NCBI GenBank assembly: GCA_024137785.1
Contig: JAHRHZ010000009.1
Span: 21,018,239-21,082,238 of the forward strand
Source of the DNA: Ginglymostoma cirratum
Taxonomy: Eukaryota
Direction: 5' to 3'
DNA length: 64,000 nucleotides
Shown here: in pieces, positions 7,906 to 63,926 of the stretch
How the letters are laid out: each line of letters starts with the position of its first letter
Position numbering within the stretch: the stretch's first letter is position 1
Notes under the pieces: generated by a model
Told to the model about the DNA's origin: nothing
Databases searched by the model: none
What the model saw: the letters and a program-made list of their open reading frames with translations, nothing else
Translations under genes and position numbers: made by a program

Positions 7906-8115
7906 TAACAGTTCAATGCAGTCCTGAGGGCCCACTGTACTGTTACAGGTATTGACTTCTGAATGAGGTGTTAAAATGAAGCTACATCTGCTATTTTGGG
8001 CGGACATAAAAGTTACACAATACAACATTTCAAAAACAGCAGGGAAATTAGTCCTGGCGTCCTAGCAAATATTTGTCCTTCATTCACCATTACAAAAGAA
8101 GATTATCTGGACATT

Positions 8116-8329
8116 AGAGATAACAAGGTGTACTGGATGAACACAAGCAGGCCAAGCAGCATCAGAGGAGCAAGAAAGCTGACGTTTCGGGTCGATTTTT
8201 TTCTGAAGAAGGGAATCGACCCGAAACGTCAGCTTTCTTGCTCCTCTGATGCTGCTTGGCCTGTTGTGTTCATCCAGCTGTACACCTTGTTATCTCAAAT
8301 TCTCCAGCATCGGCAGTTCCTACAATCTC
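8116..8329. mobile_element. Penelope-derived palindromic element with 14-bp TSD
   Basis: TSD attatctggacatt at 8102-8115 and 8330-8343; arms at about 8117-8196 and 8214-8296 are near-perfect inverted repeats. Confidence 0.85.
8199..8234 (+). ncRNA. Minimal hammerhead ribozyme motif (PLE type)
   Basis: CTGAAGA-A-GGG-aatcga-CCC-GAAAC-GTC at 8203-8230; stem I is weak. Confidence 0.6.
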
Positions 8330-8640
8330 ATTATCTGGACATTGTTAGTTTACTGTTTGTGGGAGCTTGCCAAGTGCAAATTAGCTGCTGAATTTTTGAC
8401 ATTATAAAACAGTGGTTTTAAAAAATCATTGGCTCTAATGAACTCCAGTGGTCCTGAAAAGCATTATCAGAATGTAAGCCTTCCTATCTTTAAAATCTAC
8501 CCTTTTAATCAAGTATTGCCTCAATAACCCATGAAGTGATATCAAATGTTCAGTAATGATAATGTTCCTGTGGAGTTTCATAGGACATTTTACTGGAGTA
8601 AAAGACACTATATTAATGCAACCTGTTGTTGATATTTACC

Positions 8641-16913: not shown

Positions 16914-16934
16914 CTAGTAAAAGCTTTCAGTTAC
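16914..16934 (-). CDS. PCDH9: Intron read-through tail (VTESFY*) of a putative short PCDH9 isoform
   Basis: The frame continues past the donor as GTA ACT GAA AGC TTT TAC TAG, resembling the recalled human short-isoform tail VNEHFYW... Confidence 0.6.
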
Positions 16935-16937
16935 CTG
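16929..16937 (-). other. 5' splice donor of the PCDH9 large exon
   Basis: Minus strand CAG|GTAACT; the exon ends at 16935, at the same residue (HTRQ) as the recalled mammalian junction. Confidence 0.88.
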
Positions 16938-19900
16938 TCGGGTGTGCAATGGGCCCTTTGTCTTGAAGCCTCCTTGGGAGCTACACTCTGAGGCACTGAA
17001 GTGGTCTGAACTAGTGGAAGAGCGCTTCGACAGGGTGTCACAACCCCCAACGAAGGTGTTGTCCAAAGGGAGCTCCTGAATCACGTGATGCTTTTTTGCA
17101 GAAATAGGGGTGTCTGGCTTCAGATGAAAAGAGGGCTGTGGAGAGCCAGATTTGTAATGCCTCGCTAGGTCTGGGCTGTTGGGCTTAAATGTAGTTGGTG
17201 GTGTGCTGCCCCAGTCAAATCGCCCTATTGTTTGCTCCTCCAGCTCAGCTGGAAGGGTAATGGTTCCATTGATGGGTTCATGGGCAGGGTCATCAGGTTT
17301 GGATTCCTCAATGGTGACAAAGTTTAGAAGGGAACTCTTTGGAGATTTTCTTTTCTTCCTTTTCTTCTTTTTGTTCTGCTTGCACTCCTGATTGGGAGAC
17401 ATCCATTCAGCACCCTGCTTGTTCCTTTGCGTAGCCTTGAACCTTGAGGACTGCCGGCACCGCACCAATATTGTAACAAAGATGACCACAATCACTACCA
17501 TGGCTCCCGCCACTATGGCGATCATTATGGTAAGGTAATCCTCATTTTGCCAAGGCTGGGTGCCATCTCCAATGTTCTTATCTAGTGGAGTCTCCATTGT
17601 CCTCCGTATTAACTCATAGACATAGCTAGCATTGTTTACCGTATCATTTACATACAAGTAGACAAGCACAAGTGTGTGCAAGGGTTTTGGATAACCTAAA
17701 TCGCTGATGTTCACGACCAGACGGTGCAAGCCCTGGTCTACGGCAGTCGGTTTCTCCTCCAAGGTAATATTACCAGTCACAGGATCAATTCGAAACAAAC
17801 CCTTGTTATTTCCGCTGACAATGCTGTATTTGAGCTCTGCATTCATACCTGTATCAACGTCCACAGCAAACACTTCTGCCACCACAGAACCAGGTATGGC
17901 AGACAGGGGTACTAGTTTGAATGAAGAGTTGGAGGGTGGGTAGATTACAACGGGACTGTTATCGTTGACATCTATGACATTGATTGTGACTTTAGCAATG
18001 GAAGTGCGGACTGGTCTCCCCCTGTCTACAGCTTTAACTTCGAATGTGTAGGAGCTTTGCTGTTCTCTGTCGAATGATACGTTGGACCTTATCACACCAC
18101 TCAGTGGGTCCAGAATAAAATTGGCGTTGTCACCCACAACAGAAGCCATCACCTCTGCATTGGCCCCTGCATCCAGGTCGGTGACAGTAATCACTCCCAC
18201 AGTGCTGTACTTTGGCAGGTTCTCGGACACAAAGAACTGGAAGTGGTTGTGGGTGAATTTGGGGTTATTGTCGTTCTCGTCCAGCACGGTGACGATCACG
18301 GCCGCTTGACTCTGCAGCGGAGGGTTACCGCTGTCCCTGGCAGTCACGGTGAAAATGTAACGCTCCTGCTCCTCCCGGTCGAAAACCCGGGAGGCGGTCA
18401 GGACGCCCGTCTTGCGGTCCAGGTCGAAAAACGAGGCGTTGGGCCCCAGCTGGTAGACAATCTCTGCGTTCTTGCCGCTGTCGTCGTCCGTGGCACTGAC
18501 GGTGGTCAGGTAGAGGCCGCGGTGGTTGTTCTCGGGCACTGCCAGCTCGATTACGGGCTGGCTGAAGACCGGGGGGTTGTCATTCTCGTCCTCCAGCTTC
18601 ACCCTCACCAGGGCGCTCTGGTTGAGGCTGGGTTTGCCTGCATCTGATGCCACTATCCTGAAGGAGTACTGGTTGGTGCTCTCGTAGTCCAGGAAGGAGG
18701 AGGTTTCCAGCAGGTACTGGTTGTCATACACGGCTTTGAGGTGGAAAGGCACCTCCTTCTCAATGTAGCACACCACCTTGCCATTGACATCTGTGTCCCT
18801 GTCGGAGACGGTGATCAGGGCGATTTTGGTGTTGACCGGGTCTTTCTCCGAGAGGTGCACAGAGCCATTGACCGGGCTGATGATATAGCGGATGTCAATC
18901 CCGGGCGGGTTGTCGTTCACATCGGTGACATTGACGGTGACGGTGGCTCGGGCGGGGCTGGAGCTTCCGTCGGTCGCCAGCACGGTCATCTTGTGCAGCG
19001 AGACGTCCTCCCGGTCGAGCGGCCGCTGCACGGTGATGAGCCCGAGGCTCGGGTCCAGGGCGAAGTAGCGGCGGACGGCGGCGGGGGTCTGCGGGCTGAA
19101 CAGGTAGCGGAGCTCGGCGTTGGAGCCCACGTCGGCGTCGGTGGCGTGGAGCTGGATGACCGAGGTACCGAGGGGCGAGTCCTCGGGCAACTGCACCTCG
19201 AGCTGGCTCTCCCGGAACACCGGGCGGTTGTCGTTCACGTCGCTGACGGTGACCTGCAGGATAGCGGTGCTGGACTTAGGGGGCTCCCCGCCGTCTTGCA
19301 CCTTGATCTTCATCACGTAGGTATCCTTCTGCTCCCGGTCCAAGCCCCGTTGGACGATCAGCTGCGGCCACTTCTCACCCTCGGGGCTCTCCACCACGTC
19401 CAAGCCCAGGACGCTCTGCCCGTCTAACAGCTGATAGCGCTGCACGCCGTTGGCCCCGGTGTCCGGGTCGCTGGCCGACGGGATGGGGAAGCGGCTGTTG
19501 GGCAGTGTGTTCTCCGGGATGGAGATGTTGATGACCGGCGACGGGAACATGGGCGCGTTGTCGTTCACGTCCCGCACCACCAGCTTCACCTTGACCAGCC
19601 TGAAGTAGTCGTTGGGCAGGATCACCACCTCGATCTCGAACGAGCACTCGCTCGACCCCGACTCCCCGGCGCACAGCCTCTCCCGGTCGACCCGCTGCGA
19701 GCCCGTGTAGATGTCCCCGGTGCCGCTGGAGACCCGCAGCAGCGGCACCTCGCCCGCCTTGGACACCAGGCGGTAGATGAGGTCGGCGCCGCTGGCCGAG
19801 ATGTTCAGGTCCCGCGGGATGCTGCCGATCAGGATGTTCTCCGGCAGCTCCTCCTGGATGGTGTAGACCAGCTCCTGCGCCAGGGTACAGTCCACCGTCA

Positions 19901-19946
19901 GGCAGGCGACCAGAGCAAAGAGTAGGTAGAAATCCCGCACGTCCAT
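16935..19946 (-). CDS. PCDH9: Protocadherin-9 (delta-1 protocadherin), large first coding exon: signal peptide, EC1-EC7, transmembrane helix, proximal cytoplasmic region; spliced at ...HTRQ to exons outside the window
   Basis: ORF 16914..19967. The true start is ATG GAC at 19946 (MDVRDFYLL..., compare recalled human MDLRDFYLL). Seven cadherin repeats with PE, DRE, DxD and DxNDN motifs; [26 protein letters not shown]; polybasic KKKKRKKRK; tail ...[16 protein letters not shown] matches recalled PCDH9. A phase-0 donor CAG|GTAACT follows HTRQ. Confidence 0.97.
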
Positions 19947-20090
19947 CACTGCACCAGCAACAAACAAGGGACACCACTTCCCAAGCTTTGGTCACACAAT
20001 CCAGACTTCAACCTGCACTACTCTCCTCAATAACAATTTTTAAAAAAAACCCTTTATCTCTCTAGCGTTGCTGGAAAACCAACACAAAAT
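19947..20090 (-). other. Splice acceptor and 5' UTR part of the PCDH9 large exon (exon starts at about 20070)
   Basis: Minus strand attttgtgttggttttccAG|caacgc, a U-rich tract plus AG, 124 nt upstream of the ATG, with no ATG in between. Confidence 0.65.
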
Positions 20091-41375: not shown

Positions 41376-41924
41376 TTTAAGAAACACCGTAAATCCACTG
41401 TCTCTTCCCCATCTCTTTATTTAACTTTCTGTACCTGATTCTACCCATTTACTCTCCTGCTTTATCAATCTTGTTTCCTTCTCAATCATTAAATTAAATG
41501 GGTTGAGGAAATAGCCAGTACTGCCTTATATTAGGATCCAAGATGTTCCGTTGCCCTTGGTATCTTGTTATCAGCTTGTATTTCCAGCAAGTTACAAAGT
41601 AATGGACATCTAGTCCAATGATTGCTGCTCAATGTGAGATGGCCCACTGCAGCAAGATCCGGCCCAAAGAAAATTACTAATGTAAATTCATCAGACTGCA
41701 ATTATTCCTTCCATTATTAGAAGCACTGCTGTACCACGACCAAGATGATTAGTTTACATAAGCAGTCTCCATTATCAATGAGGATATAATAACTTCAAAT
41801 GGAAATTATGTTAGGGTGCATGTTATTAAAATAAGGATTTGATTTGTGTCTGCATGCCTTGGTTCAATTAGGCCCCACCACCTGACGCTGCTTCAACTCA
41901 AGACATAGCTTGGTCTTGACCCAC

Positions 41925-42362
41925 AAGATACTGGTGATAATTCTGTATGTTTCAATTATGGATACAGAGCAGAGACGATGATTTGATATCCTTAGAAAAA
42001 TGCCAAGGGATGATTTAATACAGGTGTTTCAAATTAGGAGAAGTTTTGATTGAATCCGCAGCCAGAATATTCCCATTGACTGGAGAGTGCAGAACCAGAG
42101 GACACAGGTTCAAGATAATTGACAAGAAAAGCTATGGGGGACATGAGGTGATTATCTTTTTATGGAGTGGTGATTTTGAATGCATTGCTGGCAGAGGAAA
42201 TTGATTCAACATTACTGTTCAAAGAAATTTGAATATCTACTTTGAAACGAAAAATTTGCAGGGTTACTGTAGAATGGAGTAAACAAGTCGGGTGGCTATT
42301 TCAGGGAATTAACGCAGAAATGATACAATGAATGGGTGCCTCCTGTGCTATTTGAGTCCATG
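41925..42362 (+). mobile_element. CR1 LINE 3' fragment
   Basis: ccagaggacacaggttcaagataattgacaag...tcctgtgcta tail. Confidence 0.6.
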
Positions 42363-42798
42363 TGTTACACAATGTGTGATGGAACATTTAATAGTTGCTG
42401 GTATTGAACAAGTGCTTAATGCACCCATGATACTTCTATTTTAGCAAGGCAGTCAACTGAACACTACCATTTAAATAGTTATCGATGATTATGAAGAAAA
42501 AGGTTCATTGGCTAATACAAGCAATGTAGTATTTAGGTTGTGTTGTTTGATGCACTAGATTTTGATTTTAGCAGCAAAACAATGATGCTTACCACTAACT
42601 TTAAAACAAACATTTCCCACAAAGATTCAGAGATCAAAATGTTGTGGATTTCCCTCTTCCTAATCTGAGTTTAAATTTGGTCCCAAATCAAGGGGATCCT
42701 TTGAGGTTCAGCAATTGTGATTACATCATACATAGTAAGCAGCCAAACACATTGAAGTAAATCTCAACAGCAGCAAACCAGGAAGTTAAGAAAGAAAT

Positions 42799-43295
42799 AG
42801 TATCAGAGATAAAAGGTACTGCAGATGCTGGAGAATCCGAGATAACAAGCATGGGGCTGGATGAACACAGCAGGTCAAGCAGCATCATAGGAGCAGGAAA
42901 ACTTGATGTTTCAGGCCTAAACCCTTCATCAGAAATGGGGGAGGGGAAGAGGGTTCTGAAATAAATAGGGAGAGAGGGGGAGGCCCCCATCTCCTATCTA
43001 CTAACATCATCCCGCCCCCTTTACCTGTCCGTCCTCCCTGGACTGACCTATCTCCTCCCTACCCCCCTACCTACACTCACCTTTACTGGCTCCATCCCCG
43101 CCTCTTCGACTTGTCTGCCTCCTCGCCACCTATCCTCTCCTCTATCCATCCTCTATCCGCCTCCCCCTCTCTCTCTATTTATTTCAGAACCCTCTTCCCC
43201 TCCCCCATTTCTGATGAAGGGTTTAGGCCCGAAACGTCAAGTTTTCCTGCTCCTCTGATGCTGCTTGACCTGCTGTGTTCATCCAGCCCCATGCT
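42799..43295. mobile_element. Young Penelope-derived inverted element with 15-bp TSD
   Basis: TSD agttaagaaagaaat at 42784-42798 and 43296-43310; 137-bp inverted arms 42848-42984 and 43159-43295. Confidence 0.9.
43207..43242 (+). ncRNA. Intact minimal hammerhead ribozyme motif
   Basis: ATTT-CTGATGA-A-GGGT-ttag-GCCC-GAAAC-GTC-AAGT: full core, stem II, GUC triplet at 43236-43238 and a 4-bp stem I. Confidence 0.72.
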
Positions 43296-45899
43296 AGTTA
43301 AGAAAGAAATTTAGGTTTTCAATTTTAATTAAAATCATATAGAAATCAATTTAAAGATTGAAATATGTACATATGGGATTGGGGTTGGAGCTGAAATATT
43401 ATCAACAAACTTTAAAAAGTATTATTCTTAAAATGTGAACTTTTTGTCGTAATAGAGAAACTTGACATTCCATAAATATAAAAGCAGCTTCTCATGGGCA
43501 GTAAGGCCGTTCAACCATTATTTCACACTTAGTATGGGATGAAGAAATTCAGTTACACCTCATTCAACAAGGTGCAAATGTGTTAAGTATTTTTACCTCG
43601 AGATGAAGAGATCAAGTTCTCATCAGTTCAGCGATTTCTGCAATCTGGATAGATCTCAACAGCACCCCCTATGGAAAATCTTAGATCCACTGACAGCAAA
43701 TTCTGGATTTCTGCATTCAACCTTGCACATTAAAACTCCAAAAGTTGCCTTCAGTTTTAGAATGATAACAGTTTGTTACTTGTCATTCATTGAAAACCTT
43801 GGCCATTGTGTTTAGATTTTGCTTGCAGGCAGAGATTTCAGTTTAATAATGGGTGCTGGCAGCATAGTAACAATGTGGTTTTTACTCCAGAGGCCCTGGC
43901 TCATGCTTTGGGATCACAGGTTCAAAGCTCACCATGGCACATAGGCTGGCCTACACATGATCCTGATCCACAGCAATGTGGTTGATCCCTAACTGCCCTC
44001 TGAAATAGTTCAGCAAGCCACTCATTTTAAGGCTTTCTGGGGTTGAATAACAAACGCCAATCTTGATAGCAGTGCTCACAAAGTACGAAGAAATAAGAAA
44101 CTTTACCACTGATATATTAGTGTAGATATTAGTTTTTCCTGTTATTCTCTCCCTAACCAGTAGTGTCAAGAAATGTGCATTAACATCCAATTTACAACAC
44201 TGAGGCAAAACATGTACATACATAGTTTCTCTGTTATTAAGGCCTATGAAGTTTTCAAGTGTACTTGCTGGATTAGCCTGCCACTAGGCAAGGACTCTTA
44301 AAAGACTTCAACAGAGGAAGATTGGTTTTGACATAAACCAAAGCATAATTTTATTATTGTCTAACATTAGTGCAATACAAAGTGCTTTGCACAGAGAGAA
44401 ACTCAATCACCCAAAATTTAACCCAACAGAAATACATTATATAAGATTGAGCAAGACAAGGTTCTGTTTGAGAATGCTGTCACAAGGTATTTCAACGTGG
44501 TTGTCAAATCAAGCCATTGTACTCAGATCTTATTATAAGATATTGTCGACCAGCACCAATTTGTTACATTAAAGATTACCATGTTACAGTTATAGGTTCC
44601 GTCCATTATCATCATTACATCAACAGCACTCACAGTAACTTCACTATTATGTGATTTTATATTTTCTAACTTTAATGAGAATAATGGAGTTTTGGTTACA
44701 TTAGTCTGGTAAAGAAATGCTTCTAATGGACCAGACAATGTCAGCAATTAAAAAACTGCCCAACTATATGTACTAAACATGATTGATGCCACTGAACAAA
44801 TTGCCTTTAACAATTAACGTTATAATGTCTCCTATTCATGTTGTTATGTGAAAAGCCCATGTTGCATCACTGTAACAAATCATATTAATCAAATGCTCAT
44901 GTCACAAAGGAACTAGTTTGCTGTTTTATTTTAACCTTACCACTTTTTAGCCAAGGTAAAAAGGGGGAAAGTCAAATAATCCCTGTGTGTCAACTGTAGT
45001 GAAATTATAATCTTAAACCTTTCAAGCTAAATAGCTGAACAGAATAAACATTTGAATAAACAATAAAAATTTGATTCTTAAATTTCAATCAGGCACAGCC
45101 TATTCCTGTTGAATCTAAATTCTCATGCATAACCACTTCCAGAAAGCTTTTGGGGTTGTTTCAATCAAAGGTTTTCTTTTCTCACCTTCTTTACCTTTAA
45201 GTTGAATTTGCAACATCCGGACTTGCAAGCACAATGCAGGAAATCAATGGAGCAAACCTAGATATCCTCAGTTTGTTGATCAGTACAACAGTACATCAAC
45301 ACATACTAAAGCTGAGTTCTCTGGTTCTATTTTCATTCATTCAGCCAAGATGCAAGTCAAAATTACATTTAAAGAAATGAAAATAAGTTTCACAATAATT
45401 TACAAATTAGCTAAAGTGAATAAAATCATGGAAAAAAAACATGCACCATAATTTTTTATAAGAGGGCAGCTAAAATGTTTACTGTTAGTTAGACTTGCTG
45501 CTGCATGTTTTAGATCTTAAAATGTTTTGAGGTTGTTTGAATTGTGATCTGATAATTGCACAGAGTGGAGAAAACAGGCAGCTGTGACCTGAGTAGTCAC
45601 AGCAATCAACAAAGCATCTTCTCAAACAATCAGATTTTAGGATTGTGAAATTAATAGCCAAGAAAGTATAAATTAGAATGCATAAAATAGAAGGGAACAA
45701 TATTAGTGTTTTTCACTGTCAGATTAAAGTATTGACACATTTCATCATTGAAATGATGTCAGACTGGAATGAATGGGACTTAACTTACTGTGGCGAGTTT
45801 AGATCTAGCATACAAATACAGCAGCTTCAATCAAGATGCTATTTGCATAAAGCTAACAATGGAGCAATGCAAGCTTTGACAGAAACATTTCAATTTAAC

Positions 45900-55024: not shown

Positions 55025-55112
55025 CAATACAGTGTGGACCTGGAGGAGCACAGCAGGTCAGGCTGCATGAAAGGAGCAGGAAAGTCAACGTTTTGGGTGT
55101 ACACCCTTCATC
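55025..55112 (-). mobile_element. Penelope pLTR fragment
   Basis: ggagcacagcaggtcaggctgcat...gtcaacgttttgggtgtacacccttcatc is the reverse of the 43210-43290 family. Confidence 0.7.
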
Positions 55113-63807: not shown

Positions 63808-63926
63808 GTCTAGGCCCGAAATGTCAAGCTTTCCTGCTCCTATGATGCTGCTTGGCCTGCTGTGTTCCTCCAGCTCCACACCTTGTTATCTCGGATTCTC
63901 CAGCATCTGCAGTACCTATTATCTCT
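63808..63926 (+). mobile_element. 5'-truncated Penelope pLTR
   Basis: gtctaggcccgaaatgtcaagc...ttatctcggattctccagcatctgcagtacctattatctc; same family as 42799-43295. Confidence 0.8.

Follow-up and report, generated by a model that had tools for sequence, protein, structure and literature searches.

The insert and its parent family

The window analysed here, a 64,000 nt stretch of the nurse shark genome, contains a 497 bp insert (42799-43295) flanked by identical 15-mers (42784-42798 and 43296-43310). Given the local base composition, the chance of finding an exact 15 bp repeat within ±20 nt of both insert ends is ~1e-5, and the repeats were taken as the two copies of a target site duplication (TSD). 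Two inverted arms of 137 bp (42848-42984 and 43159-43295), differing at four positions, enclose an unpaired, asymmetric spacer of 174 nt (42985-43158). Followed on into the TSD, the arms measure 142 bp with five differences. These values recover, with exact coordinates, the 497 bp insertion, the perfect 15 bp TSD and the 137 bp inverted arms described in the initial annotation. The CpG-type changes it had noticed in the antisense copy on the left arm were also found, at 42913 and 42907. The other two differences (43174 and 43255) lie on the right arm, as judged against family reads and copies.

BLAST comparison with 30 loci and alignment to one copy, L237, showed that the whole insert, spacer included, is Penelope-like element (PLE) sequence and represents the 3′ end of one repeat family; base 42799 differs from the template in the alignment to L237. 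Family positions are numbered from the A four bases before the hammerhead core (+1, window position 43207), and 0 is counted. On this scale the left arm (42799-42984, minus strand) extends from -47 to +137, and the right arm (42984-43295, plus strand), which consists of 3′ UTR/pLTR sequence with ~98% identity to the 3′ end of L237, extends from -222 to +89. The left arm runs 48 bases beyond the paired part (42800-42847) and reaches the tail end of the family; the optional PLE tail of ~40 nt (42800-42840, minus strand, +97 to +137) is present in this arm only. The two 5′-truncated ends meet head to head at 42983-42984, with an overlap of 1-2 nt, at a junction unique in the genome. There is no ORF for a PLE enzyme in the insert. 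The first five bases of the right TSD match the next bases of the element (+90 to +94) at four of five positions, and this match is likely to be a trace of priming microhomology at the short 3′ end of the family.

The enzymes of the family were found in sister copies. L071 and L237 encode a reverse transcriptase (RT; PF00078, E 1.4e-7) followed by a C-terminal GIY-YIG endonuclease (EN). The match of the latter to PF01541 (E 1.1e-3) is below the curated cut-off; GIY-YIG-like motifs and two internal cysteines are readable in both translations. L237 is a near-complete pLTR-ORF-pLTR unit, in which two hammerhead cores 3,546 bp apart surround the ORF, and L200 has a 5′ pLTR similar to that of L237. 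The translations of L071 and L237 contain a CX4CxxC linker between RT and EN. A CX2-5CxxC linker at this place is described in the main text of PMC8557442 as a feature of Neptune, shared with Nematis. Since Neptune is the linker-bearing clade reported in vertebrates, we prefer it to Nematis, and on the translated sequences the parent element appears to be a Neptune-type EN+ PLE. The family is abundant: the 28-mer of the hammerhead core has 32,669 exact genomic copies, and a 33-mer of a downstream motif has 54,251 genomic matches. L071 shares the layout of the window insert: its sense arm is 2.6 kb long, its inverted arm is short and its TSD measures 16 bp, which indicates that arm length forms a continuum.

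The left TSD copy lies inside an old, 68-74% diverged, low-copy repeat (42570-42790; L278, L279), for which 17 matches with 68-86% identity were found. The paralogue of this repeat gave short matches, weakly collinear across the insertion site, and an empty allele was not seen in four read runs from other samples, whose reads fell outside the flanks. The gene feature nearest to the insert is a protocadherin coding exon ~23 kb away, and the insert is upstream of it. An open frame of 1,025 codons (16914-19991, minus strand), within a GC-rich and CpG-rich stretch, encodes six cadherin repeats and a Protocadherin domain, and we take it to resemble PCDH9. The window also contains a second hairpin insertion (8102-8343), which is older and diverged, belongs to a related PLE subfamily and has a 14 bp TSD (8102-8115 and 8330-8343). 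It has one tailed arm, and its junction is at the front edge of the hammerhead with a T run; it is thus an in-window example of the 5′-end hot spot described below. PLE-end fragments of related subfamilies were found at 63808-63926, at 55040-55112 and, as an inverted pair, at 2048-2340.

The hammerhead motif and its predicted folding

The right arm carries a minimal type I hammerhead motif of intact sequence (43207-43242, plus strand). Its core (43211-43238), which the initial annotation had called complete, consists of CUGAUGA, an extra A, stem II GGGU/UUAG/GCCC (43219-43230) and GAAAC-GUC. In place of stem III there is an ACGU palindrome (43234-43237), and stem I is only 4 bp long (43207-43210 with 43239-43242), with one G-U pair. 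The predicted cut site is after 43238. The sequence features of the minimal type I class are present: the core, the extra base after A9, G10.1-C11.1, the palindromic 15.1-16.1 and a short stem I. The second motif, in the left arm (42901-42936, minus strand), was damaged by the two CpG-type changes, which turned the closing G-C pair of stem II into G-U and the palindrome ACGU into ACAU; this arm therefore lacks the palindrome of the class.

A search with hammerhead models, suggested in the initial annotation, gave no support: Rfam detected no hammerhead in the window at the gathering threshold and none over 42700-43400 at E≤10, where it returned 16 weak unrelated matches. Because Rfam does not detect the motif, the hammerhead call relies on the pattern seen in the sequence and on the way PLE minimal hammerheads have been described (main text of PMC4209133); that paper also mentions pairs of motifs on opposite strands, separated by 100-700 bp. 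The facts cited in the initial annotation (palindromic ACGU, proposed action as dimers, extra base after A9) agree with that description. Like the published examples, the window motif has an intact core, an unpaired base before stem II, G10.1-C11.1, a palindromic ACGU and a 4 bp stem I. The same source gives 7-8 bp for stem II in Schistosoma, whereas stem II of the window motif is predicted to have 4 bp, and the number of exact cores in the nurse shark is well above the 4,000-9,000 copies given there for coelacanth and Xenopus. Across the fetched subfamily loci the hammerhead varies too little for an informative covariation test.

Folding was compared by secondary-structure energies only. In the read-through RNA (-300.8 kcal/mol) the predicted pairing probability of stem II was 0.000, whereas in an RNA starting at 43207 (+1), without the antisense arm, it was 0.89. 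The predicted active fold of the monomer was weaker than the inactive one (-3.4 and -9.3 kcal/mol, respectively), and the active-type dimer was far weaker than the inactive dimer (-9.2 and -28.8 kcal/mol). Each strand of the locus has one sense motif, which precludes a dimer in cis. Because the arms are joined head to head, transcription of either strand passes through the antisense arm and the spacer before it reaches the sense arm, and the masking sequence is made ahead of the ribozyme. The mirror-image arm is thus predicted to hide the ribozyme in any read-through RNA.

Transcripts were sought in the polyA RNA run X22, of which ~24% was read. Depth was zero in the unique flanks of the insert (41800-42723 and 43312-43899). 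The library has reads on both strands. Of the reads mapping to the insert 93% continue into other sequence, and as far as copies can be distinguished, they derive from other copies. X23 yielded 15 reads. X22 showed no pile-up of read ends at the start or at the cut site, in a polyA library that is insensitive to cleavage. No sign of a function of the insert was found.

These results bear on the conformational switch proposed in the initial annotation, in which the antisense arm would conditionally mask an active hammerhead. The intact right-arm motif and the stem II predicted for the RNA starting at 43207 would suit such a switch, as would the cleavage of the Anolis PLE hammerhead once PLE protein is added (main text of PMC11167929). 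However, the masking is predicted to be total, with the antisense arm first on either strand and no alternative state left; the active monomer and dimer folds are predicted to be the weaker ones; no second sense copy is present on the strand; and the unique flanks had no reads in the ~24% of X22 that was read. Nor was there a sign of selection: the arms have four differences, and the motif is one among the 32,669 exact core copies. We consider a ribozyme switch at this locus extremely improbable.

Junction, paired ends and integration

The initial annotation had offered two origins for the hairpin: a non-autonomous ribozyme-bearing mobile unit (retrozyme- or MITE-like) or an inversion product of PLE integration. 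MITEs and other replicating hairpin units are found at numerous sites, each time as a whole and nearly identical unit. A 31-mer spanning the window junction had one match, at ≤1 mismatch, in the 4.36 Gb genome, so the recurrence by which the initial annotation proposed to recognize a replicating hairpin was not seen. In BLAST across the junction only the locus itself spanned it, among the 40 of 567 candidates scored, and the junction spacings of sister pairs without N were all different. It was the second origin that stood: all bases of the insert come from the 3′ end of an element with RT and GIY-YIG domains, the junction is unique, sister junctions differ and the TSDs are 14-16 bp long. A replicating retrozyme- or MITE-like unit was not borne out for this junction.

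That the whole hairpin was copied as a unit by PLE proteins is, in our judgement, very unlikely. It does have terminal inverted repeats and a TSD, and pLTR ends can be used in trans by PLE proteins, as the main text of PMC3846280 describes for Pen3a. Animal non-LTR retrozymes (PMC7229834; bioRxiv 10.64898/2026.07.22.740005) are, like the insert, non-coding, carry a type I hammerhead and derive from PLE pLTRs. They are, however, defined by head-to-tail tandem units, each with a hammerhead, and by abundant linear and circular RNA. The insert has no tandem units: its two parts meet in one head-to-head join, and either strand carries one motif. Another, complex junction of the family does recur, with five matches at four loci with different flanks; but one of the four carries its tail on the other arm and differs in its subfamily variants, which implies at least two independent origins. 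The three other loci could share one source. Secondary mobilisation of hairpin units may thus occur rarely at the level of the family.

An identical 16 nt junction insert was observed in short hairpin copies at four loci with differing flanks (L272-L276; G000 C1, C77 and C218). It is made up of an A run, re-copied first bases of the element and a T run. The joining reaction may be stereotyped, or hairpins may on rare occasions be copied as a unit.

The ends of the family were surveyed in the first 100 genomic matches of the downstream motif, a non-random sample of consecutive matches on two contigs. The 3′ ends were bimodal: 48 fell at +93-101, 48 at +126-140 and four elsewhere. An inverted partner was visible for 25 of these arms and 49 had none, while 26 abutted runs of N and were unclassifiable. 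In addition, 49 neighbouring minus/plus pairs, likewise from consecutive matches and not drawn at random, were collected. For 25 of them the ends could be read and a flanking repeat was present, one of these repeats apparently stemming from the junction; the other 24 were left out for want of a flanking repeat or because of a noisy end call. Exactly one arm was tailed in 22 of the 25 TSD-bounded head-to-head pairs, the window insert included. Two pairs had no tail, one was unclassified and none had two. Assuming independence, the excess of one-tailed pairs over 50% has a binomial P of ~1e-4. The flanking repeats were 14-16 bp long in 22 of the 25 pairs. Taken together with the arms that start near the front edge of the ribozyme, the one-tailed pairs suggest that each event involves two primings and that the RNA has its 5′ end at that edge.

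With high probability, the insert derives from a high-copy Neptune-type PLE, two of whose 3′ ends, both 5′-truncated, meet head to head at a genome-unique junction; they were likely joined in one integration event, with RNA copied onto both strands of a 15 nt staggered cut. In the proposed sequence of steps the GIY-YIG endonuclease would cut both strands 15 nt apart. One 3′-OH would prime reverse transcription at the distal start (+137) and so produce the tail, and the other would prime at the proximal start (~+94), aided by the 4 nt target match. Both cDNAs would stop early, at -47 and -222, and the two truncated cDNAs would be joined over the 1-2 nt overlap, after which fill-in would generate the TSD. 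The hammerhead would be a passenger from the pLTR, and the four arm differences would have been gained since insertion. Rather than a novel mobile unit or an RNA switch, the insert is thus most likely common debris of PLE insertion.

The main text of PMC11167929 reports a biochemical parallel. In vitro, the PLE protein of Anolis, a predicted dimer, cleaves both strands and extends them, with reverse transcription beginning at two neighbouring internal positions that define the tail. Genomic sequence does not distinguish one RNA from two, or dual priming from the fold-back self-priming discussed in the main text of PMC3846280. In that paper self-priming from palindromes was proposed for inverted PLE junctions, and several junctions of the present family are palindromic. 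An inversion from a single priming, through fold-back or through a template switch onto the new strand, nevertheless seems improbable at the window locus. Its junction has no palindrome beyond the 1-2 nt overlap, and the 174 nt spacer is asymmetric. Moreover, beyond the point where the right arm ends, the left arm continues for 48 nt into tail sequence absent from the right arm; the left arm therefore cannot be a copy of the right arm, and fold-back would be tenable if the fold-back copy had then switched back to the RNA. The presence of one tail in 22 of 25 pairs also fits two starts better.

Dual priming at one cut has a precedent in another class of elements. In LINE-1 twin priming, two primings at one staggered cut produce an inverted 5′ segment inside a TSD. 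The insert has the bounding TSD and would share the two primings. In LINE-1, however, the second priming takes place at an internal, upstream position and leaves two parts without overlap, whereas here both would start near the same 3′ end, which would make the arms long inverted repeats.

Closely comparable to the insert are the insertion units of EN+ PLEs, which consist of an inverted 5′-truncated copy beside the 5′ end, a one-sided tail of 30-40 bp and a TSD (main texts of Craig et al. 2021, PMC8557442, and, for Pen2a_Av, Arkhipova et al. 2013, PMC3846280); the tail is described in these papers and in PMC11167929. The same elements are found at the window locus: 5′ truncation, an adjacent, inverted, 5′-truncated copy in head-to-head orientation, a tail at one end and a TSD around the whole. 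It differs in that both arms are too short to keep any ORF, and the TSDs of the nurse shark family are 14-16 bp long, compared with 8-10 bp in the rotifer examples of these papers.

The Poseidon element PAc of Anolis carolinensis (Frangieh et al. 2024, PMC11167929) has, like the family, a pLTR hammerhead and no RNA reads ending at the cut site. Its neighbouring internal RT starts, which set the tail, and its cutting and extension of both strands correspond to the steps proposed for the family. The CX4CxxC linker of the family is absent from Poseidon, and the in-frame ORF begins downstream of the tail in the family but inside the hammerhead in PAc. We found no description of a 5′-end hot spot with an extra G, as present in the nurse shark family, in the text on PAc.

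Family 5′ ends at the front edge of the ribozyme

Extending the core by its eight upstream bases reduced the exact matches to 17,476 copies (53.5%), of which 15,853 (90.7%) also had the next eight. About 41% of core-bearing arms accordingly begin ≤8 nt from the front edge of the core. Mutation was rejected as the cause of this drop, as the loss was 46.5% over the first 8 nt and 9.3% over the next eight. In the survey of 100 matches, which was anchored downstream of the core so that ends downstream of it were also visible, 26 of the 5′ ends fell at -1 to +4. The ribozyme cut was considered as the 5′ end of the family and rejected: none of the 100 ends was at +33, and three were within +30 to +36. 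One inverted arm in the sample ends at +33.

A non-template base precedes +1 in 2,455 copies; among the first 100 listed it was G in 65, A in 27 and T in 8 (hand count). For comparison, 9 of 58 bases preceding 5′ ends elsewhere were G. In 30 loci inspected there were 18 cases of G, five of them clearly extra, six possibly from the target or the opposite arm, five in short re-copied motifs and two unclear. T runs and short re-copies of the first bases of the element are common at front-edge 5′ ends. Among the 15 RNA-read joints shown, eight involve positions 0 to +2, and one of these, on the sense strand, has an extra G.

In copies L061, L060 and L088, and in run X22 at L200:2541-2952, the 5′ part of the ORF was seen joined before +1 or before the 3′ UTR, as expected if cDNA jumps from the RNA 5′ end to another template. 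One such joint, covered by 50 reads, carries an extra G.

In other systems an untemplated G arises from copying of the RNA cap. The sequence context of +1 is, we assume, initiator-like. Position +1 is most likely the 5′ end of the PLE RNA; alternatively, the front-edge ends arose from RT stalling at the ribozyme fold. Both arms of the window insert read through +1, so this locus is not itself a product of the hot spot. We found no published description of the front-edge pattern in the main texts searched.

These ends may reflect an undescribed PLE copying cycle, which we put forward tentatively, at somewhat below even odds: a capped RNA starts before the hammerhead core, two cDNAs start from a double cut, each makes a strong stop and then jumps, and the hammerhead cut is not used for the template. 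In such a cycle the capped RNA would begin at the A just before the core, and a protein dimer would cut both strands ~15 nt apart. Two cDNAs would start at +96 and +133 of the capped RNA, and each would reach the cap, like a retroviral 'strong-stop', where it would add a C opposite the cap or stutter and re-align like telomerase. For further extension the cDNA would have to jump to the 3′ pLTR. Short stubs would be failed jumps, and hairpins like the window insert would be two cDNAs joined together, the window locus being a double-jump or 3′-pLTR-primed product. The hammerhead cut would have no part in making the template.

The insertion type and the hammerhead motif are already known, and the architecture has been published for PLEs. 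PLE end fragments number in the tens of thousands, and the locus carries little weight alone; its value is that of one data point on PLE integration. The reading proposed for the family is based on the one-tail rule, on 5′ ends that coincide with the presumed RNA start and bear a cap-type G, and on the absence of ends at the ribozyme cut. If it holds, natural reaction products are available in this genome by the thousand, from which the result of the in vitro assay already established for the Anolis element can be predicted, and it would speak against the hammerhead as the feature that defines the template.
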